DNA of 62,753 nt, the filler included, from Asterionella formosa (Eukaryota): NCBI GenBank assembly GCA_002256025.1. It is 6 parts of 6 records of this genome, joined end to end, with 100 filler letters (N's around TTAATTAATTAA, not from the genome) between each part and the next. Parts side by side here need not be neighbours in the genome. Positions count along the whole stretch, not along the records: positions 27,828 to 55,524 come from NKIB01001426.1; 5 more parts are not named here. One strand, 5' to 3'. Below the pieces are notes generated by a model. It made no database searches and was not told the origin of the DNA. It saw nothing but the letters and a program-made list of their open reading frames with translations. Below are positions 18,369 through 57,332 of the stretch, piece by piece; the first letter of the stretch is position 1, and every line of letters starts with the position of its first letter. Position numbers and translations under genes: made by a program.

Positions 18369-20741
18369 TTATTCATTTTCAAGTGCCTCTCCAAATGCGT
18401 GAATAGAATTCGCCAACACTTCACAAAGTCTGCTGCAATCCTCCTTGCTTGTCAGCGGCGACGACATAACATAAATGACATTACCAAGCGGACGAGCAAA
18501 GACTCCTTTGTCTCGAAGCATCTTGACTATTGGACCAGTTCTGGAATCTGCAGCATAACCAGTGCCATCTGATTCACCAGGGTGAATTGTCACAGCAACA
18601 ACTGTGCCTAGAGTAAAACTCATCTGGACCAAAGGCAACTCAGATAGCCTCCTGACTTGGTCACTATCAAAAAGTGAAGAAACTTTTGACCTGGATCCCT
18701 TAATGAGAACTTCTTCATACGCATCCAGTGCATGAAGTGCGCTCACACAGCCAATTGGGTGCGCTGTGTAGGAATGACCATGTAGCAGTGCTTGACTCTT
18801 CTCATCTCCAAGGAATGTTTCAAAGACATCTTCAGAACTCAAGGTTACACCCATAGGAACAATACCACCGGTAAGTAGCTTCGCATAGCTTGCAATATCG
18901 GGATTAGCTTTGAGTATTTCCCTACAGCTGCTGACACCAACACGGAAAAGACCAGATGCTATCTCATCGAAAACAACTGGAACCTTCTTTGCTCTTGCAA
19001 CATCCATCAGAGCCCGCTGCCATAGAGGATCGACAAATTTCATTCCACCGACTCCCATGAGAATTGGTTCAATTACTACTGATCCAATCAAACGAGGCCT
19101 AGATTTTGTGGCACTGGACTCATAAGTGTTCCATTCTTCCTGAATACTCTTAGTATAGCAATCATATAACAATGTATCAAGTCGACTTTCTACATCCATC
19201 ACCGCCTCTACTGAAGAAAAATCAATGTTTGCTTTGTTGTCAAGACTTGATACCCTAAGGTTCCCATCATGAAAGCCAAGTGAAGGAGTAGCAAGGAAAA
19301 GTGCCTTTGGTTCATACCAAGGATGCTGGCCTTCATTGAATACGCTCGGTTCGGCAACATCCATCACACCAAGAGTATCGCCATGGTAGCATTCTTTCTG
19401 TGCACAAACCATCCAATCGTATTGATGTACTTGTTCGTCTGACAACCCATGCCATTTTTGATATGTTTTCATCCCCATCTTTATGCTCACTTCCATAGCA
19501 GTACTACCATCGTCGGTGAAGAAGACACGACTAGCCCAACCATGACCAGGACCTTGGGATCCAATGAGTTTCTGAGACAGTCGAAGTGCAGGTTGATGGA
19601 CCACATCAGGAAAAATGACATGGCCATATCGGCCAGCTGCTGCAGCAGATGCCAATGCCATGGAGGATTCCCCATGACCAACACCTTGTGTCCACCAAGA
19701 AGCACAGGCATCAAACATTGGATGTCGCTCCAGTCCATTTTGACCATCCTTCAACACTTGATAGTTGTCGCCACTGGCGCTGTCAACCAGGGTAACCTTT
19801 GTATCATCCTGGACTTGTCCGTGTTGGGTGAATGGCCACCAAAACAAATCTCGTCCATAGGATCTCATCGCCTCGACTTCCTTGACTTGTTCATTCCAAC
19901 TTACCTCGAGATGTTGGTCGAATGAATCCAAGGTTTCGGCTACACGAGCGGTATCGTACCATTCATGCAGGGATTCGTTAAGAGGTGGTAGCTGTGGGAG
20001 TGCGATAATACAGATTTCTGGATTGTCAAACAAAGCTTTTCCGGTTCCCGCTCGTAGCCTCAGTTTCCGACTCGCGTATTCTCGAATTGCAGATACGTTG
20101 TCATAGTCCGTCTCCAACATGACGATACCTGCAACATCGTACCCCCTGACAATTAGTGATTCCAAGGCTGACAGGGTCGCACTAATCCCTCCCAGTCGAC
20201 CATCTCCCACCAGGACCACAGGAGCAATACCCAAAAGGGGTTGATAGAGGTCAGCTTGTGTAACCCAGCCCCAAGAGTTTTCATTCGTAGCAGACGCATG
20301 TTTTGGTGATTGGTTCAATGGAGATGCCGCTGATGGGCTCAGGACACCTCCCGCAGTTTCGATCCAGGTGGTTGATGGAGCAGATGTGCATTCTGCTAAT
20401 TTCGCTTCCAGTGTATTTAATACGTGCTTGTCACTTTGTGGTGCATTTTCTCGGATCGATGCCACATGTGGTGACGCTGGTGTCTCCCAAGAAAACAACG
20501 TCGCCACCGTGGAACCTTCCGCGTACTTGCTGACGAAGGCCTGGTCGCTTCCTCCGCATTGAAGTGGCTTGATGTAATGAACAGGTCCACCTTTCTTTAA
20601 TGATGCTTTGACCAAACCTGCCGAGATTACGGTCTTACCGACATTGGTGTTGGCGCCAAAGATGAAATGAGTTCGCGCATCGGCAGCGAAGCGGATGCGA
20701 TTCAACGAGGAGAAGCTTCTCCGTGAGATTCGACCTTGCAT
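18369..20741 (-). CDS. BIO3-BIO1: Bifunctional dethiobiotin synthetase / DAPA aminotransferase, likely mitochondrial
   Basis: GANTNVGKT P-loop, ETAGG, LGGIS; then WWPFTQH, DACASWW, DDGSTAME, YHGDT, FDEI, AKLLTGG and RPLGNV; Arg/Ser-rich N-terminal presequence. Confidence 0.95.
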   Translation of the reverse strand: MQGRISRRSFSSLNRIRFAADARTHFIFGANTNVGKTVISAGLVKASLKKGGPVHYIKPLQCGGSDQAFVSKYAEGSTVATLFSWETPASPHVASIRENAPQSDKHVLNTLEAKLAECTSAPSTTWIETAGGVLSPSAASPLNQSPKHASATNENSWGWVTQADLYQPLLGIAPVVLVGDGRLGGISATLSALESLIVRGYDVAGIVMLETDYDNVSAIREYASRKLRLRAGTGKALFDNPEICIIALPQLPPLNESLHEWYDTARVAETLDSFDQHLEVSWNEQVKEVEAMRSYGRDLFWWPFTQHGQVQDDTKVTLVDSASGDNYQVLKDGQNGLERHPMFDACASWWTQGVGHGESSMALASAAAAGRYGHVIFPDVVHQPALRLSQKLIGSQGPGHGWASRVFFTDDGSTAMEVSIKMGMKTYQKWHGLSDEQVHQYDWMVCAQKECYHGDTLGVMDVAEPSVFNEGQHPWYEPKALFLATPSLGFHDGNLRVSSLDNKANIDFSSVEAVMDVESRLDTLLYDCYTKSIQEEWNTYESSATKSRPRLIGSVVIEPILMGVGGMKFVDPLWQRALMDVARAKKVPVVFDEIASGLFRVGVSSCREILKANPDIASYAKLLTGGIVPMGVTLSSEDVFETFLGDEKSQALLHGHSYTAHPIGCVSALHALDAYEEVLIKGSRSKVSSLFDSDQVRRLSELPLVQMSFTLGTVVAVTIHPGESDGTGYAADSRTGPIVKMLRDKGVFARPLGNVIYVMSSPLTSKEDCSRLCEVLANSIHAFGEALENE

Positions 20742-21368
20742 GGCTTCTATAGAGACTTTACGAATGTGTACAACGAAGTGATTTGAAATAGAGAAAAGAC
20801 AGTGGTAAAGCAGCGTTCCTTCGAGTGTGGTTGAATTGTGGTGGCTGACAAAATTAGACTCTGGATTCGTCTGGGCAACTTAATTTGGATGACCATGGCT
20901 ACTTGGTACCAGTAGTAATACCGGTATGGCCATTACACGAAATGACAATAATATTGGTACATATTTAGGATAAAATATCCAAAGTATATAAGTAGTGCAT
21001 ATTTCATTTTATGATTTTCTTGCTTTCATAATCGTCTCGGTACTCTAGACAACACACTATCTACCGGTATATATCGGAGCTATATACCTACCGGTATATG
21101 TGTATATGTAAGAAATATAAAGGCACGGGGTCAGTATCCATATACATACAAATAGTGTACCGGTATAAACAGATGTGTTAATGATGCACCAAATGAAGTT
21201 TTTCATTCCCAGACATACATATGGCTGGAATCATGCTCAGAGTACAAATAGTAGCCACCGTAGCCCTAGTATGATAGATAATTAGCATAGCGAATATTTT
21301 ATGGATAAATATATTCATGCATGTCATTACGTAATGTTGTCAAGCATGTAACAACATCAGCGATCACT

Positions 21369-50068: not shown

Positions 50069-52555
50069 ATGTCGGACGTAGTTCCTCCTCCATCTCATGA
50101 AGAGGAAAGCCTTCCTCAAGGATCGTCTTTGTCCATCATGACCGCCATTAAGCTGCTGACAGCATCCGCTCTTCTTGTCGGCACCGCGACGACGTTCACG
50201 AGCAACACTACGGATTCAAATTCCGCCATTCATCGAAAGCTCCTTCAAGTGGGCGATACGATCCCTTCGTACATGAACGACTTGATGCTGGAATTAAAGG
50301 AGCGAAAGAAACTCATGGAAGAAACACCCCCCGAGGAGGTCAAGTATTGGTTTGAATACACAGGCCCACTTCAGGTGAGTCACGACTCTGTTGTATGAAC
50401 TGCCCGTACTCGCGCGGAACTGGCTGGCTCGTTGCGGCGAAATGAGGATCACAATCATTATTCATAGTTCATCTGAAGTTCAAAGTCACCCTTTGCTTGA
50501 TGTCTACATTCCATCAGAATCGCTATCTGATTGCCGCAACTGTTTCTTTGGGGGGATCAGTCGTTTTCAACGACTGTTGTTTTACTCTGGCATGGGACTA
50601 TTCTAACTCCAATTTTTCGTTAATTTCCGGGACAGAAATACTTTTACCGATACTCTAAATCACGAGGAAAAGCAGACTCGTTTGAAGGCCGCGATGACTC
50701 TGGCGTCACTTCTTCTCGATTTACTGAGCAGTCTCTGGGTAGTAAGGAATTTCATGACTTTCTTTTGGACCCGGATGTCAAGGATGAGGAATTGTCGGCT
50801 CATGCACGCTTGTTGGAAAATTGCCTTTCCATGGGTTCACCAGCACGCCCAAAGATGGGCAAAGGAACGCTGTGGAATGAATGGTTCGGGAGAAAACAAG
50901 CGCCTTCAGCAGCGAGTATGGACCGATGCCGCATTCTATTCACTCTCAATATGGTTGGGGCTGGTCGGGGAACTACCATGTTGTGGGAGACAAATCCTCC
51001 TCAAATTCATGCACAGGGAGCCACTCCTTGGATATCGGAACAAGAAACAGCTGCAACTCATTTGGAACGAAATTTGAAGGAAATGGACGCCATGTGTGCG
51101 ACTGGACAAATCGCGGTCCGTGTACAAGTATTAGTGTGTGAGCCGATCCCTGCCAAGTGGACCGATTGGATGGATAGCATGCTAGTGAATTGTGGTGGCA
51201 AGCCGAATGCCATGGAACGCAAAGATAATGGATCGCCTTATGATTCTGGTGTCTTGGTAGAGGAACGGCCATCCCCTGTACAAGTAGTGGTGGTTGCGTC
51301 GGCAGCAACTGCCGATACCTGCCATGACTTGAAGAGTGGTTTCATGGAAAAAAGGATGCAAGATTTGATTCTCGCTCCTCCATTTCTAGCCAATGGAAAA
51401 ACGAAGATTACGAATCCCGCCATTAAAAATACTCACCCTGACTTGGTTAGCTCGGATGATCATGATTTATATATTGCCTTGAAGTGGTCCTCCATGGTAA
51501 CCGTCAGGGCCGTTCACGCTTTCTTGCAAGCGTCAGCTGATTTGGCTGCTGCTGCGGGATCACCCAAAAACAAATCACCGACCCAACCGGAGAAGAATGC
51601 AGATGGAAGCACAGCTGATATTTCAAGTGCACCTTCATCGCCGTTTTTGATCCCTTCCTTTGTGCGTGTATCATACGTGAGCGAAGAAAACTCAAAAGTG
51701 GCCAAATGGAGAATGCATGGTGATTTCTTTCACCCAGCTGCGTGGGAAGTTTGTAAAGATTCCTTCGACGTAACGTGGATTCCTAACTCGCTGTCAGGCT
51801 CTGGTGGTGTCAACGGTATTTGTTATGCTCAAGGTGTGGTGTCGGCCTCTCGCAAACTGAAGCAAGGCGAAGAATGCGGACAATGGTGGGTTTATTTTTC
51901 CGAAGAGCAAATGCCAACAACTCCCGAAGTCCATGCCAATGAAGTGACGACACCCTTAGTTCTGGGTGGATCCAACTATATTTGGATGTTGACGGAGCGT
52001 CATCGACGTGAGATTGTCAAGCAAAAGATTTGCCAACGCGATGGAAATATGTCTTGTCCCGAGTCTCCTCAAGCAGTGATTCCGCTGGGCAACTTAGAGT
52101 CCTTTCTTATTAACTTTACTCCTAACACTGCCCTTGGCAAGATACACGTGAAAGGTCGCCGTCCTGGGTATTCCCGTGAAAAGGAACGTGAGTTGGACCG
52201 CCAAAAGGTTCGCGAACGTAAGCAACTTAAGGATCAAGAAGATATTGAAAAGGCGCTATTTGACTACACGATTTACCCAGCTGCTTTGTTCCACAAGGAT
52301 GCAACAATCAAGGCGGCCCGTTCTCGTGACTTGGTCTTGACGAAGAATCGAAATGAGGAAGCGATTGGTCCACAGACTGTCAAGTCAAGTTATTACGATG
52401 TCACCATCACCAAGCCACGAGAGCCGACTTCTGCTTGGTGCCAATCCATTGCACGCAAAGGACTTTGTGTCTTGTACGGTGACTATTTCCGAACAGGCTC
52501 TGACGACCGCTGCATGGAAGCATGTGGTATGAAGAAGAATTGGTCGCCTTTGTAA
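50069..52555 (+). CDS. Uncharacterised protein with an N-terminal signal anchor (2 exons; intron 50375-50635)
   Basis: Exon 1 (...IKLLTASALLVGTA...YWFEYTGPLQ) splices GT..AG in frame with the 596-aa ORF, giving ~740 aa. No family recognised. Confidence 0.75.
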
Positions 52556-52811
52556 AAAGTACTCAAAAGCAATGTATAGTAGAGTTGGGGTAAGCTGATC
52601 GTGCGAGAGCGATCTCAAAAGGTTATAATAAAATTCGTAATAAGATGTCCTCGACAGTTGCGTTGTTTTGGTGCACACATGTTAAAAAAGTACTGCATCC
52701 TCTAAGGAATTATACTAATGCACTGTAATTACCGATAGTTCGCTATATCATGATGCCAATCATCCCTTTATTAGCGCGCATCGATCATCACCAATACAAC
52801 CAATGGTTGGG

Positions 52812-53015
52812 CTACTTCCAAACGCCAAACCAACTGTTCTTATCAGGAGTCTCAGCATTCGAGTTTTTGTTTTTATCATCATTACATGGAGTTCCGGCTT
52901 TCCAATTTGGACAGCGGTCGTCTTCTTTGATTCCTGCCAATGCGCTTTGAATGTGCATTCCACAGCCTGCCCATGTTGCCTTTCCACAGTGACTGCAATT
53001 GACTTTGCGACACAT
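52812..53015 (-). CDS. Small (67-aa) Cys/His putative metal-binding protein
   Basis: MCRKVNCSHCGKATWAGCGMHIQSAL...RC: the C-x4-CxxCGK.TW.GCG.H pattern that I recognise from uncharacterised fungal and actinobacterial small proteins. Confidence 0.75.
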   Translation of the reverse strand: MCRKVNCSHCGKATWAGCGMHIQSALAGIKEDDRCPNWKAGTPCNDDKNKNSNAETPDKNSWFGVWK

Positions 53016-53538
53016 TTTTTGATATCCTATATGAGATGTTTGGTAAGGTAGTAAATAATAATAAAATACGAACCAACGAGAGGTACAGAACAACAGAGGA
53101 AAGCAAGCAAAACAACCGGTGGTGTAAGGAGTGGAAAAATGACAAAACAAAAGCAGTCGTAAGTAATAATAGTAATAATGATAGAAAGTAATGATATTCG
53201 AGGTGTCTTTTGCGAACCACAACTGCGAACAGCCAAGAAGGAACAACTTGTGCGTGCGTGTACGTTAGAAATATTCATAGTCCTGATTTTAGTAATATAT
53301 GATATTCATACATATATATCAAATGTTGTCCAGCTAAAAAAATGGATCAAGAAGAAACATCGTCACCAAAATCAAAGCGGCAAGTAAGGAAAAAGGAACA
53401 ACATCGGCCACTCTTCTGCACTTTAGGGTTTGCACACTCTGTGCTGCTTCTGCTGAGGACAGTCTCGTTGATCAACAGACAACCATCCAACATATACATA
53501 AGGTCGAATCGACAGGGTAAAATAACCTTAATCACACA

Positions 53539-54687
53539 ATGAGGGACTCACGAAGAAAGTATCATCAATTGGCATCCAACATGTTTACCTTGTCAAATCC
53601 TTTCCTCAGAAGAATCTTGATGCAACGTCCGATACGCAACAACAGCAACAGCACTGGCTCTACAGGGCAAGTGCTAGTGTCCAAATCAACTGCAACAACA
53701 GCAATAACAGATCTTGACAAGGATTCCACTCGCCACCTCGTCGAACGCCTCTTGACCGAGACACGGCAACTCATGGACAGTGAGAACGATAGTAGCAGCA
53801 TCAATAGCAGTACTACTGCAAGGATGAAAACACATCATGTGGTAGCCTTTTCTGGCGGTGTGGACTCATCGTTGGTATTGCAATTACTTGTAATGGTTGC
53901 TGCTACAAGACCCACCAGCACAGCAGATACCATTATTCAACCCATACTAGGAGTATCTCCAGCAGTCTCTCAAGAACAATTGGAACAAGCACACACTGTG
54001 GCAGCTCATATTGGCGTTGATTTACTTACAGTCCCAACCCAGGAAGGTTCGGATGCCACTTATATTGAAAATACAGGTCAAGCATGCTTTGTCTGTAAAA
54101 CACACTTGTATTCCTCCCTCAATGCCATTATGAATCATATTACAAATTTGGAAAACAACAACGACAACAACAGTAGTAGTTCTACAACAACAACAACACG
54201 TCGATTATTGTACAATGGTACAAATGCAGATGATACAAAAGATCCAACACGTGTTGGACTCCTTGCAGCACGAAATTTTTCTGTTCATTCACCATTGATT
54301 CATAGTACTAAACAACAAGTCCGACTAGCGGCACAATATTTGGGATTGCCCAATTATAATACGGCGGCATCACCATGCTTACGATCACGATTGGCATTGG
54401 GAGTTCCGGCAACTGTGGTACATTTGACTATGTTGCAACAAGCAGAACGACAAGTACGAATGGACTTGAACCTATCTCATCAAGTCAATATGAGAGTACG
54501 AATGTTACATCAAGGTCGTGCTCGTATTGAACTAGATGCCATGCTCTTGGATCTTGCCATACCATGGATGGAGGTGTGGACACAACAATTTACAACTTTG
54601 GGATTTTCTTCTGTATCTCTAGCACCCTTTCAAACTGGATCTGTGTCGACAATGAAACATGTCCCAGCACAAGGGACAGTAATGTAG
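53539..54687 (+). CDS. larE: LarE-like ATP-dependent sulfur insertase (PP-loop)
   Basis: VAFSGGVDS PP-loop, Y.EN...ACFVCK, NGTNADD..D..R.G..AA, SPL...K..VR..A..LGLP, ASPCLRSR, AE, RVR and RIE motifs; an N-terminal extension could be a targeting peptide. Confidence 0.8.
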   Translation: MRDSRRKYHQLASNMFTLSNPFLRRILMQRPIRNNSNSTGSTGQVLVSKSTATTAITDLDKDSTRHLVERLLTETRQLMDSENDSSSINSSTTARMKTHHVVAFSGGVDSSLVLQLLVMVAATRPTSTADTIIQPILGVSPAVSQEQLEQAHTVAAHIGVDLLTVPTQEGSDATYIENTGQACFVCKTHLYSSLNAIMNHITNLENNNDNNSSSSTTTTTRRLLYNGTNADDTKDPTRVGLLAARNFSVHSPLIHSTKQQVRLAAQYLGLPNYNTAASPCLRSRLALGVPATVVHLTMLQQAERQVRMDLNLSHQVNMRVRMLHQGRARIELDAMLLDLAIPWMEVWTQQFTTLGFSSVSLAPFQTGSVSTMKHVPAQGTVM

Positions 54688-55624
54688 TGCACTAAAATCA
54701 TATCATGTCAAGCAATCACGTAAAGAGTTTATTTTGTAAACAGATAGATATTGCCTAACGTATAAATATCATCAACACTACACTACTGCAATTCCAAAGG
54801 AGTCCAATGTTAAATAGTGATATAGTAAAATCATGCACCACAAATACTTGTGATTTCTATATCTGTAGAGGAATGCCACTACTACTCTCCCATTGGCACT
54901 GTAATTTTAAACATTTTCTCTACCAATTCAAACTACTAGAGGCTGATGATGGCGTGATCCCCTCTGTGACAACCAAAGCTCTCAAGAAGAATCCGGTTGC
55001 CATGGACATTCCAATGAACAATCCCACAGCCAGTGCCATTATCAAGTCTTGCTACAATCACAATCTTTCAATCCAAAAATCCTGTTGTGGTTTTTACTTC
55101 CACCACAAAGGAAACAGCATCCAGCATTTCTGGTAAACTACATGGGAACATGGAATGGAAGACAGTCTTTATAACTTATCTAAACTAGATTCGACTAATA
55201 GTCCCAATGTGCTTGAACTGTGCTTATCCAGGGTAGTGAAACCAAGAGTAATGAAAAGCCAACACGAAGAAAGGAGTATCAGGTGCTTCTGCCTGGTGCC
55301 ACAATGCCAAATGTGAAAAATACATTATTTGTATGTATATAAGAACCATGTAGCTATGTATGTATGCATGTATCTCTGTGTGTGGGTTTGCGGAAGTATG
55401 CATCTCTTTACATCATCCAATACACACAAGCTGTCTCATTGCCTTTGTTTAGACCATCATCCAATTGATCCTCCCAATTTGTTGCAAAAGTGTCCAAGTT
55501 AGTGCTCAATACAGAATGCCCCTTNNNNNNNNNNNNNNNNNNNNNNNNNNNNNNNNNNNNNNNNNNNNTTAATTAATTAANNNNNNNNNNNNNNNNNNNN
55601 NNNNNNNNNNNNNNNNNNNNNNNN

Positions 55625-57332
55625 TGATCCGCATCCACAAAACAGTGAGTAGTTACAACATTACCTCTGGGCTCGGGTGCGTCCCCTGGAATAGACTCCT
55701 GCGCTCCCCTGTAAAAGTCGTGCCAATCGCATTTAACAAACCTGGATTCGTCTATATCGGGGTGTGTCAGATCAAAGATCAATGTCCTCTTAGGTTTCGC
55801 TTTCAAATATCCGAACATATGATATACCTGCTGTAAGTGTCCGCTTCTCGGCAATGCTAGGTGAGTAGATAACATAGAAACCTTCATAGCAATGTCTATT
55901 TGTCCAAGCTCCACTGCCCAGCGGAGCACGCCGATCAGTTCCTGGTAGTATCTCACGCCTTCAATCTTGAGTTCGGCAGAGGTACCCAGTTCCGGTCTAT
56001 AATTCCCCTGCAATGGGGTAGTGCACCTCGTCGGAAGCCGCTGACCCGACTCGTCGAGTTTGAACTCTATTTTGGCGATGGTTGCCTTGACATACTGCTC
56101 CGAAGTCATGGCCCAACACTCAACTCCACCGACTATTTTCTGCATTACCTGGGCTCCCAGGTAATTTTCCGGCTTTTCGCCTTACGCCGAAAGTTTTCGC
56201 CCATTTTGATGTCGAACACGAAATGGCACCTTATCTTTTGGTACCCTGGCGGAAGGTCTCCCTCTCGCTTTTCCCACTTTTCGAATGCCGGTCGCATGTT
56301 TTTCATTGCCTTGCAGATGGCGTCCCACCATAATGTGTTACCATTGGCTTTATCAATCGCGAACGCCTCTTCGACGGACTTCGGTATCCGTATACCGTAT
56401 TTGTGAGTTCGCTGCCAATACTGAGACTTTACCTTTGCTAGGACTCGGTCCCGTTTCTTTAGAAGAGTCGGCACCCACCACGCGAACGCCGCCTCGTCAT
56501 CAATACGATTAGCAATTGAGTACTCCGCCACCTGTATGGGATACGATTGCTTCATATCCTTAAGTGCGACCCAAGTGGTACTCCTGTCCCTCCATTGGCA
56601 TAGGAGTTGCCACCCTTGAGTCGTCTGTCTCCGCCGCTTGACACCGTTAGACATTGTAATGAACGCATCCTCTTTGTCGAGTGCCGTCGCATTCCGCCTA
56701 TGATCGATAATGTCGTCGAGAAGTATGTGTCGTGCGCCCTCCTCGTCTATCTGTGAAAACAAATTCTGAGCAATAAGGTTAGAGGACAATGCCTCTGAGA
56801 GTCCGTCCAAGAACTCGACCTCATACTCTATTGTGTCAAGCAAAGGATTTTCGTCAGCCTTGCCGATAGGTCTACCATCGGCGTCGCGCAATCTCTTGGT
56901 GACTCTGCCAAATTGAACACCGTCGTTGTCATCTCCAGCGCCCCTCGCTATCGCTATCTCTTTGTTGAGGTATGTATTCTCGAAAAAATCGGGCGTGAAG
57001 GTGTCATCGGCATCTGGTATTTGGTGATCGCTCACAACATGACATTGTTTATCTCTTCGCCGAATGCTGAATCGTCCTGTAGATCCGTGTATTCATCCCA
57101 ATCCTGCAATTGTCACTCCTCCTTGTCGCCTGCATTTTGGTGGTCGTTGTCATGCATGATCTCGTTTATCCTCTCATTGTACTCCTTGCATCTGTCTTTG
57201 ACTTTGCTAGTTGTTAGTTCAAGGTGAGTGATATGCTGCACTGTAGTGCGTGAGATAACGCGACAAGCAATGGTTAGAATCCAATACGACATTAGGTTAC
57301 CGACTTGGTGAGACACACCAAGCCAGCGCCCG
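55625..57332 (-). mobile_element. Ty1/copia (CoDi-like) pol fragment with the RT core deleted
   Basis: GRWLGVSHQVG..MSYWIL; YEVEF.DG..NLIAQNLFSQ; THKYGIRIPKSVEEA..ID..NGNTLW; CHFVFDIKM..FRRKA; YQELIGVLRWAVELG.IDI; start of RNase H at FVDAD. Confidence 0.92.

Follow-up and report, generated by a model that had tools for sequence, protein, structure and literature searches.

A predicted LarE-family, three-cysteine PP-loop enzyme of the diatom Asterionella formosa and its divergently transcribed small Cys/His neighbour

Introduction

Does a diatom possess a sulfur insertase of the nickel-pincer type, and does the small cysteine-rich protein encoded next to it serve as its partner? LarE is an iron-sulfur enzyme that inserts sulfur into the nickel-pincer cofactor, and the nickel-pincer nucleotide (NPN) pathway comprises LarB, LarE and LarC together with a user of the cofactor such as LarA. 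Both questions are raised by a locus of Asterionella formosa in which a LarE-like gene and a small gene stand head to head within the window (the whole stretch of DNA analyzed, 62,753 nucleotides). A sequence-only reading had proposed either organellar NPN synthesis or a stand-alone thiolation enzyme, with the small protein as a possible co-regulated carrier of metal or sulfur. Its description of the pathway as a prokaryotic one was overstated, because PMC11770544 reports NPN-biosynthetic genes and LarA homologues in some unicellular eukaryotes and shows that a LarA homologue of Phytophthora nicotianae is active. Our literature search found no description of nickel-pincer or lar genes in diatoms, although the taxa in Figure S1 of PMC11770544 may include diatoms.

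Results

The locus holds two genes, with the following coding sequences and transcripts.

53539..54687, plus strand: LarE-family coding sequence, 382 aa, intronless (ORF, TIGR00268, PDB match, Foldseek, RNA contigs)
52812..53015, minus strand: coding sequence of a 67-aa Cys/His protein of an unnamed, widespread family (ORF, six close homologues, profile)
53412..54781, plus strand: LarE transcript as covered by contigs (starts 53412-53459, ends 54735-54781, four RNA runs)
52600..53177, minus strand: small-gene transcript, continuing below 52600 (RNA contigs, four runs)
53178..53411, no strand: gap between the transcripts, presumed bidirectional promoter (uncovered in 4/4 RNA runs; limits approximate)

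The two coding sequences lie head to head with 523 bp from ATG to ATG, which bears out the divergent neighbour that had been placed about 520 bp away. Evidence for transcription comes from RNA contigs of four RNA runs in two studies, and both transcripts appear in poly(A) libraries. These contigs are colinear over each gene separately, with zero joints, and the LarE gene is therefore intronless. The stretch from 53412 to 53539 contains no ATG. On the other side, contigs of the small gene run about 120 bases past 52600 at one end and reach 52976-53177 at the other (52976 in run X11), so that the divergent transcripts are some 235-330 bp apart; because contigs cannot prove absence, the gap at 53178-53411 is only a hint of a promoter. 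The 67-aa gene is a separate gene and is independently transcribed. Neither ORF is a chance reading frame, given a LarE match at E 7e-46 and 1455 homologues for the one, and homologues and profile clusters for the other.

We then asked to which family the 382-aa product belongs. The NCBIfam LarE model, TIGR00268, which describes COG1606-type PP-loop sulfur insertases, matches residues 99-369 at 156.6 bits (cut-off 150), and the next best family, MnmA, reaches 19.6 bits (cut-off 284). Scores for other PP-loop families are similarly low (NAD+ synthase, 19.5 vs 255; QueC, 12.7 vs 150.3), and the ORF falls below the curated NCBIfam cut-offs of MnmA, QueC, NadE, TilS, GuaA and AsnB. Pfam yields sub-gathering, weak PP-loop matches alone (tRNA_Me_trans, NAD_synthase, QueC). 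Among sequences in the PDB, the LarE of Lactiplantibacillus plantarum matches with an E of 1.5e-11. An AlphaFold2 model (pLDDT 85.5, pTM 0.81) has the LarE fold of an N-terminal PP-loop domain followed by a C-terminal domain; every Foldseek row shown is a LarE chain, the best by E-value being 5unm (E 1.3e-18) and the best by TM-score being 8cnz, the [4Fe-4S]-containing LarE of M. maripaludis (TMt 0.83, rmsd 3.3). Judged by sequence and by model, 53539..54687 encodes a diatom member of the LarE family, a PP-loop protein with the three cysteines, and it does not group with QueC, MnmA or NAD synthetase. Eukaryotic genes of the nickel-pincer kind have been published before.

The motifs on which the cluster and substrate assignments depend are these.

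53851..53868, plus strand: PP-loop SGGVDS, residues 105-110, the ATP pyrophosphatase motif (S105, G106, G107, D109 and S110 invariant in 149 aligned sequences)
54085..54096, plus strand: CFVC, with Cys183 and Cys186 as the first two proposed [4Fe-4S] ligands (invariant in alignments)
54367..54390, plus strand: ASPCLRSR, residues 277-284, with Cys280 (54376-54378) as the third proposed cluster ligand (alignment)
54493..54501, plus strand: RVR, with Arg319 and Arg321 as proposed P2CMN phosphate binders (alignment to L. plantarum Arg212 and Arg214)

Across the 149 aligned LarE sequences C183, C186, C280, S283, R284, R319 and R321 are invariant, although the prokaryotic rows were retrieved by a pattern containing CxxC, so that conservation of CxxC there is partly by construction. 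The diatom protein carries the CxxC...C trio of the putative [4Fe-4S] subtype, a motif defined in PMC9283937. Its Cys280 aligns with Ser177 of L. plantarum LarE, one residue past Cys176, and the same one-residue shift occurs in T. maritima LarE (PMC9283937). Ser283, Arg319 and Arg321 align with L. plantarum Ser180, Arg212 and Arg214, for which binding of the P2CMN phosphate has been proposed (PMC9283937), and all three are also invariant in the 84 eukaryote-like sequences. A low-complexity Asn/Ser/Thr insert occupies residues about 203-219.

Ahead of the catalytic region stands an extension.

53539..53709, plus strand: N-terminal extension, residues 1-57, presequence-like, probably mitochondrial (pLDDT, composition heuristic)

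In the AlphaFold2 model, pLDDT is below 50 at residues 5-34 and 48-52, and the first 40 residues contain eight R/K and one D/E with no hydrophobic signal-peptide core. By the same simple composition heuristic, an extension of this kind is present in 91 of 106 LarE homologues that start with M, and a signal-peptide-like core in 0/91. Such features suggest that the diatom LarE is probably imported into mitochondria. The PP-loop, CFVC, SPCLRSR, Arg-rich N-terminus and lack of an intron described from the DNA were all recovered in the sequence and RNA contigs, and the extension is of the organelle type, Arg/Lys-rich and disordered in the model.

The best named matches among the homologues are diatoms, and the gene is conserved across diatoms, with orthologues in Epithemia, Cyclotella, Mayamaea, Nitzschia, Thalassiosira and Cylindrotheca. 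The best named diatom relatives are 42-52% identical and prokaryotic ones 28-36%; when metagenomes were scanned with an alignment of diatom LarEs, the 80 loci recovered were without exception prokaryotic, at 28-36% identity, and no diatom contig was among them. In a FastTree phylogeny of 149 rows, a single branch with SH-like support of 100 separates 84 eukaryote-like LarEs from 65 prokaryotic ones. In the ESM Atlas, the closest look-alike cluster (261 members) consists mostly of Oomycota by language-model similarity, a measure that uses no alignment. The A. formosa ORF clears the curated TIGR00268 cut-off by just 6.6 bits. Of five further homologues scanned, P0037 (179.4), P0029 (176.4) and P0071 (168.9) exceed the cut-off, and P0088 (149.6) and P0296 (140.1) fall just under it; the orthologues from three named diatoms and a LarE-PLP fusion among them span 149.6-179.4 bits. 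A search for longer LarE-containing proteins found three: an 895-aa JGI protein with no additional Pfam domain, and a pair of Closterium gene models that also contain leucine-rich repeats. Neither LarB nor LarC is fused to any of the three.

Compared with the LarEs of Thermotoga maritima and M. maripaludis (8cnz), which are [4Fe-4S]-dependent sulfur insertases of NPN synthesis, the diatom protein shares the PP-loop, the CxxC...C trio with its third Cys one past the L. plantarum Cys176 position, the conserved phosphate-binding Ser/Arg/Arg and the overall fold. It differs in being eukaryotic and in having a disordered presequence of about 57 residues and the Asn/Ser/Thr insert; identity to 8cnz in the structural alignment is 18%, and cluster and activity of the diatom protein are predicted. 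With L. plantarum LarE (PDB 5udq and others), a sacrificial sulfur transferase with the single donor Cys176 and no CxxC, it shares family, fold (E 1.3e-18 by structure) and the ATP and substrate-phosphate residues. By contrast, CFVC in the diatom stands opposite SWYYAK in L. plantarum, so that a catalytic cluster mechanism is expected in the diatom LarE, not self-sacrifice.

To place the enzyme relative to its pathway, we looked for lar genes in the window and around prokaryotic relatives. No Pfam domain marking LarA, LarB or LarC occurs in the 21 scanned window ORFs of at least 150 aa. As a control, larB and/or larC lie within 3.5 kb of larE in 8 of 21 prokaryotic loci (cysteine desulfurase in 4/21); the other 13 lack both genes in the vicinity, which shows that a LarE homologue can occur away from the pathway genes. 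At three of these 13 (L009, L019 and L048), a MocA-like cytidylyltransferase and a NifS-type desulfurase adjoin instead. The oomycete system offers a eukaryotic comparison: P. nicotianae LarAH15 is an NPN-dependent D-gluconate 2-epimerase (PMC11770544). Like that system, the diatom LarE belongs to a stramenopile, and by the alignment-free measure its closest look-alike cluster is mostly oomycete; unlike it, the diatom shows no LarA homologue among the window ORFs scanned.

The 67-aa protein reads C2-C7xxC10-C18-H21-C35-C44, the C-CxxC-C-H-C-C pattern that the sequence-only reading had described and that can be read directly from the sequence. Its conserved domain is the following.

52905..53015, minus strand: conserved domain, residues 1-37 (M1, C2, C7, C10, W15, G17, C18, G19, H21 and C35 invariant in 83 aligned sequences)

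It begins Met1-Cys2, with no presequence. Six close homologues (E 1e-16 to 3e-10) include one from a named Attheya and two from MMETSP transcriptomes, and a profile gathers 1037 representative clusters. Members also occur in Phytophthora and a chytrid, with look-alike clusters in land plants. For residues 1-40, taken as four 10-residue blocks, AlphaFold2 predicts a beta-hairpin and a short helix with pLDDT 87-91; against the PDB, Foldseek finds no match at E <= 0.001 (best E 3.2). There is likewise no named family for it in Pfam or NCBIfam (0 in each), zinc fingers, rubredoxin and metallochaperones included, and Pfam on 24 bacterial members returns scraps only, with E of at least 0.034.

BolA is an Fe-S trafficking domain, and some protist members of the small family are fused to it (P0205/P0282 and P0216 above the cut-off, P0225 below). 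At 30 of 78 loci of Actinomycetota, the small gene has a CoA-persulfide-reductase-like gene, coding for a CoA-disulfide reductase plus a rhodanese, no more than 1 kb away; at 24 of 78 that gene is within 150 bp on the same strand. Single loci are flanked by a CsoR/CstR-type repressor, TauE, a rhodanese or a thioredoxin. These neighbours recall the cst-like CoA persulfide reductase (CoAPR) operon of Enterococcus faecalis, with CstR, RhdA/B and CoAPR (PMC9405070): the actinobacterial relatives adjoin, on the same strand, a CoA-disulfide reductase with a C-terminal rhodanese. On TIGR03385 the actinobacterial reductase reaches 440 bits where the cut-off is 578.8, and the diatom 67-aa gene has no such reductase gene beside it. 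The family is thus linked with sulfur and Fe-S genes, which the sequence-only reading had not foreseen, and these associations fit awkwardly with mere adjacency to LarE.

We also asked whether the two genes travel together elsewhere. LarE was found at 0/78 prokaryotic small-protein loci and the small protein at 0/80 LarE loci. Among 30 genomes with the small protein, just five have a LarE above the cut-off and 25 have none. A complex prediction for LarE 58-372 with small-protein residues 1-46, run without alignments and without controls, scored 0.00 (mark 0.34), a value that bears on binding in neither direction.

Discussion

The explanation that we favour, and consider fairly probable, is that A. 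formosa has an Fe-S-type LarE orthologue, probably mitochondrial, and that the gene for the 67-aa protein stands on its own, belongs to a metal- or thiol-binding family of wide distribution, and most likely owes its place next to LarE to the compactness of the genome rather than to any dedicated partnership. Mitochondria, into which LarE is probably imported, are where cysteine desulfurase and the Fe-S assembly machinery reside. As an ATP-dependent PP-loop enzyme it would adenylate the carboxylate on a pyridinium mononucleotide, and the activated oxygen would be replaced by sulfide bound at the open iron site of the [4Fe-4S] cluster that Cys183, Cys186 and Cys280 would ligate. Family, fold, conserved motifs and residues, transcription, lack of an intron and presence across diatoms are observed; that the diatom enzyme binds a cluster, which substrate it uses, where it resides and that the remaining pathway genes exist in this organism is inferred.

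That the gene is a bacterial contaminant, or a mis-called PP-loop relative such as QueC, MnmA, TtcA or NAD synthetase, we regard as virtually negligible. The weak sub-threshold matches that Pfam returns by itself would fit a mis-call, yet no other family exceeds 19.6 bits and all structural matches are LarE. Contamination is rejected on the eukaryotic genes that surround it in the window (Rab, HOOK, DWNN, PP2C-cNMP and DUF6824 domains) and on its transcripts in poly(A) libraries; the best named relatives, moreover, are diatoms at 42-52% identity, against 28-36% for prokaryotes. Another alternative, unlikely in our judgment but carrying appreciable weight, is that diatoms retain a LarE homologue alone, which thiocarboxylates or thiolates a different phosphorylated carboxylate outside the nickel-pincer pathway. 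It would account for the lack of larA, larB and larC among the window ORFs, for the 13 of 21 prokaryotic larE loci that have neither larB nor larC nearby, three of them beside a cytidylyltransferase and a desulfurase, and for the silence on diatoms in the literature that we searched. However, absence from one 62-kb window says little because eukaryotic genes are not expected to cluster, the equivalents of the P2CMN-phosphate residues (Ser180, Arg212, Arg214) are invariant in 84/84 eukaryote-like sequences, and the closest look-alike cluster comes from oomycetes, among which an NPN-dependent enzyme has been proven (PMC11770544).

The remaining alternatives concern the neighbour. We think it improbable that the two genes form a functional pair, in which the 67-aa protein would be a co-regulated donor of sulfur, persulfide or Fe-S, or a metal carrier, for LarE under a shared bidirectional promoter. 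In its favour are the closely spaced divergent transcripts, both in poly(A) RNA libraries; the reductase-rhodanese genes of Actinomycetota, whose architecture matches CoA persulfide reductase, an enzyme that releases H2S (PMC9405070); the repressor, TauE, rhodanese and thioredoxin neighbours of single loci; the BolA fusions; and the dependence of [4Fe-4S] LarE on an external sulfide donor (PMC9283937, PMC11796402). Against this, neither gene accompanies the other at any of the prokaryotic loci and 25 of 30 small-protein genomes have no LarE, and the partnership is therefore unsupported. The family's presence in Phytophthora and a chytrid, with look-alike clusters in land plants, argues for a general role of the 67-aa protein, and its lack of a presequence beside an import-type LarE hints at different compartments. 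The transcription of both genes from one short divergent promoter region and the sulfur and Fe-S ties of the small family keep the partner idea from being refuted, while linkage in prokaryotes, where it was examined, is not conserved. A sulfur link between the 67-aa protein and LarE is conceivable. In its most speculative form, which we rate as a long shot, the undescribed and very widespread Cys5-His domain family would carry sulfide, persulfide or a small Fe-S unit and, co-expressed with LarE from the bidirectional promoter in diatoms, would load the fifth sulfur onto the LarE [4Fe-4S] cluster and so feed a mitochondrial nickel-pincer pathway; if true, this would mean a new nickel demand for marine and freshwater phytoplankton.

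Irrespective of any partnership, the 67-aa neighbour exposes an unnamed family of small proteins with more than a thousand representative clusters, for which the recurrent persulfide-reductase neighbours provide a concrete first hypothesis of function. As to LarE itself, should larB and larC prove absent, the well-conserved diatom protein would be left as a thiolating enzyme that lacks an assigned substrate. If diatoms do make the nickel-pincer cofactor, this major group of primary producers would possess a cofactor pathway dependent on nickel and sulfur that the literature we searched does not describe for them. It would stand beside urease as a reason for their nickel requirement, and could be tested in a tractable eukaryote with organelle targeting.

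The gene pair and its transcription

Direct reading of the ORFs and the sequence bears out the earlier description of this gene pair and its motifs: a LarE-like gene and a gene for a small Cys/His protein lie head to head, with 523 bp from start codon to start codon. The stretch is contained in 20 public runs from 13 studies, and eight of these runs are RNA. Contigs of four RNA runs (two studies; two poly(A) libraries) served as transcript models, and each of the four gives two separate pieces at the pair.

Features of the gene pair
52812..53015, minus strand, small Cys/His protein ORF, 67 aa (ORF listing)
53539..54687, plus strand, LarE-like ORF, 382 aa (ORF listing)
below 52600 up to 52976-53177, minus strand, small-gene transcript piece (RNA contigs)
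53412-53459 to 54735-54781, plus strand, LarE transcript piece (RNA contigs)

The LarE contigs follow the DNA colinearly without joints; the gene is therefore intronless. Because 53412-53539 contains no ATG, the annotated LarE start is the first ATG of the transcript. Lys7 becomes Met through a population variant (A>T at 53558), which explains why the 99% identical homologue P0001 begins six residues later. Contig cover is absent from 53178-53411 in all four RNA runs, and we read this interval as a short bidirectional promoter, although contigs cannot prove absence.

The window DNA is eukaryotic. Among its remaining large ORFs, the Pfam scan identifies Rab, HOOK, DWNN, PP2C-cNMP, DUF6824, class-III aminotransferase with AAA_26, and Erv1 domains. 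An 836-aa ORF at 18369-20879 (minus strand) joins the AAA_26 domain, read as dethiobiotin-synthetase-like, to the class-III aminotransferase domain, and we interpret it as a BioD-BioA fusion gene for biotin synthesis. Nearer the pair, a 574-aa ORF at 50831-52555 (plus strand), unmatched in Pfam, stops about 260 bp short of the stop codon of the small gene. The small gene's RNA contigs extend beyond 52600 towards this ORF, so the two transcripts, which converge, may overlap at the 3' end. ORFs at 55573-57092 (minus strand) look like retrotransposon Gag-Pol fragments when the translation is judged by eye (no Pfam match), and since a run of N breaks them, the sequence some 0.9 kb downstream from LarE holds a repeat or an assembly gap.

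The large protein is a LarE

The large protein carries the PP-loop SGGVDS at residues 105-110, CFVC at 183-186, and SPCLRSR, which contains Cys280. The NCBIfam LarE equivalog TIGR00268 matches residues 99-369 with 156.6 bits (E 7e-46; cut-off 150), whereas all remaining NCBIfam PP-loop families score below 20 bits against cut-offs of 64-606; Pfam PP-loop matches are all sub-threshold. Five further homologues fall on either side of the TIGR00268 cut-off, three above (168.9-179.4 bits) and two just below (149.6 and 140.1). Sequence search found solved relatives only among L. plantarum LarE chains (E 1.5e-11). An AlphaFold2 model built from an alignment of 149 sequences (pLDDT 85.5, pTM 0.81) returned LarE structures without exception in Foldseek, the best by TM-score being 8cnz (TMt 0.83, rmsd 3.3), M. 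maripaludis LarE with its [4Fe-4S] cluster. The identity proposed from sequence is confirmed. A grouping with QueC, MnmA, TtcA or NAD synthetase, named beforehand as refuting, did not occur.

The PP-loop, C183, C186, C280, S283, R284, R319 and R321 are invariant across the 149 sequences, with CxxC conservation in the prokaryotic rows arising by construction, as these were fetched with a CxxC-containing pattern. In pairwise alignment with L. plantarum LarE, Cys280 falls one residue past Cys176, S283 matches Ser180, and R319 and R321 match Arg212 and Arg214. The accessible part of PMC9283937 describes the same one-residue Cys shift and a CxxC-C motif in the [4Fe-4S] LarE of T. maritima, and proposes Ser180, Arg212 and Arg214 as binders of the substrate's phosphate.

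Evolution and targeting of LarE

Among named relatives of the large protein, the best come from diatoms (Epithemia, Cyclotella, Mayamaea, Nitzschia, Cylindrotheca and Thalassiosira; 42-52% identity). In a FastTree phylogeny (289 columns), a single branch with SH-like support of 100 separates 84 eukaryote-like sequences, which are the protein's top homologue matches and are named only in part, from 65 prokaryotic LarEs. The nearest ESM Atlas cluster (261 members, 89% eukaryotic) is mostly Oomycota, followed by a Bacillariophyta cluster; this alignment-free proximity is only a lead. Gene models P0297 and P0298 from the charophyte alga Closterium join a LarE-like domain to leucine-rich repeats, probably as a merged gene model, and show that LarE homologues extend beyond stramenopiles; P0297, the one scanned, scores 148.4 bits.

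N-terminal extensions of at least 15 aa (median 49) occur in 91 of 106 Met-starting homologues; medians over the first 40 residues are 6 Arg/Lys and 1 Asp/Glu. A signal-peptide-like hydrophobic core was found in none of the 91, and residues 5-34 and 48-52 of the AlphaFold2 model are disordered. By these heuristics, rather than a trained tool, the N-terminus is consistent with a mitochondrial presequence but not with the plastid route of diatoms, which begins with a signal peptide. In the diatom-like LarE P0037 (12-member cluster), no stop separates LarE from the N-terminal portion of a PLP enzyme of Cys/Met metabolism (PF01053, E 3.4e-8), and at the joint a Met precedes an Arg-rich stretch resembling a second presequence; the alternatives for P0037 are a genuine fusion to a possibly sulfur-mobilising enzyme and read-through into the adjacent gene.

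Role of the diatom LarE

The sequence-only reading regarded the nickel-pincer nucleotide (NPN) pathway as characterised in prokaryotes, a view now out of date: according to the accessible part of PMC11770544, NPN-biosynthetic genes and LarA homologues are present in some unicellular eukaryotes, Phytophthora nicotianae LarAH15 is active as a D-gluconate 2-epimerase, and the LarAH15 branch takes in all eukaryotic LarA homologues. Diatoms go unnamed in that part, eukaryote names are absent from the paper's text supplement, and our literature search returned no relevant paper on lar or nickel-pincer genes of diatoms.

We favour NPN synthesis, with some confidence, as the likelier role of the diatom LarE. 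Its main rival, a stand-alone thiolase, we consider unlikely. Pfam detected no LarA, LarB or LarC domain in the window's other ORFs; among 21 control larE loci of prokaryotes flanked by 2.5 kb or more on both sides, larB and/or larC lies within 3.5 kb of larE in eight and neither does in 13, while a cysteine desulfurase is nearby in four. In three prokaryotic loci that share a different context (L009, L019 and L048), larE is preceded by a MocA-like cytidylyltransferase and followed by a NifS-type cysteine desulfurase, and neither larB nor larC occurs within 3.5 kb.

The small protein and its relation to LarE

The small protein, whose Cys/His pattern reads C2, C7xxC10, C18, H21, C35, C44, belongs to a large family without a name and carries its conserved domain. 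A profile of its six close relatives (58-83% identity; one named, Attheya, and two from MMETSP transcriptomes) detects 1037 representative clusters at E <= 0.001, of which 211 remain at E <= 1e-10. Several Phytophthora species and the chytrid Rhizoclosmatium supply the named members, which are annotated 'hypothetical' throughout; ESM Atlas look-alike clusters are mostly Streptophyta and Actinomycetota. M1, C2, C7, C10, W15, G17, C18, G19, H21 and C35 are invariant in 83 sequences. AlphaFold2 models residues 1-40 as a hairpin and short helix (pLDDT near 90), for which Foldseek found no similar solved structure, and the protein has no Pfam or NCBIfam family.

Prokaryotic genomes hold at least 520 stretches encoding the family. 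The 78 loci analysed are nearly all from Actinomycetota, where the family is widespread, encode a form of about 40 aa (Cys5-His), and carry two copies in 22 cases.

Example loci of the Actinomycetota family
L107:6353-8284
L101:8001-10546

In 30 of the 78 loci, a gene for a CoA-disulfide reductase with a C-terminal rhodanese is found no more than 1 kb from the small gene; in 24, the distance is at most 150 bp and the strand is shared. The encoded protein scores 440 bits on TIGR03385, under the model's cut-off, and shares its architecture with the CoA persulfide reductase of a CstR-controlled operon, which converts CoA persulfide to CoA and H2S (PMC9405070, accessible part). Four further neighbours, a CsoR-family repressor, TauE, a stand-alone rhodanese and a thioredoxin, were seen at one locus each. 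Of 19 longer family members scanned, P0205/P0282 and P0216 carry a BolA fusion, P0225 gives a weaker BolA match below threshold, and P0160 is fused to Dabb; the members with BolA are eukaryote-like. The prokaryotic neighbours and BolA fusions thus tie the family to reactive-sulfur and Fe-S genes, and the Actinomycetota loci point to a role in persulfide or sulfide handling.

The suggestion that the small protein and LarE are partners finds no support in prokaryotic linkage: LarE is absent from all 78 small-protein loci and the small protein from all 80 LarE loci, in a search sensitive enough to recover LarE in 80/80 and the small protein in 78/78 of their own loci, and LarE exceeds the cut-off in only 5 of 30 small-protein-bearing genomes. 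The small-protein family also ranges more widely than LarE, and a presequence has no place ahead of its invariant Met1-Cys2 start, in contrast to the seemingly imported LarE. We rate a partnership as very unlikely but do not dismiss it, because [4Fe-4S] LarE requires an outside sulfide donor (PMC9283937 and PMC11796402, accessible parts) and its neighbour's family is sulfur-linked.

The tie of this family to sulfur and Fe-S genes was not to be expected from the window alone, and the most original outcome is the unnamed small-protein family itself together with its link to persulfide-reductase genes.
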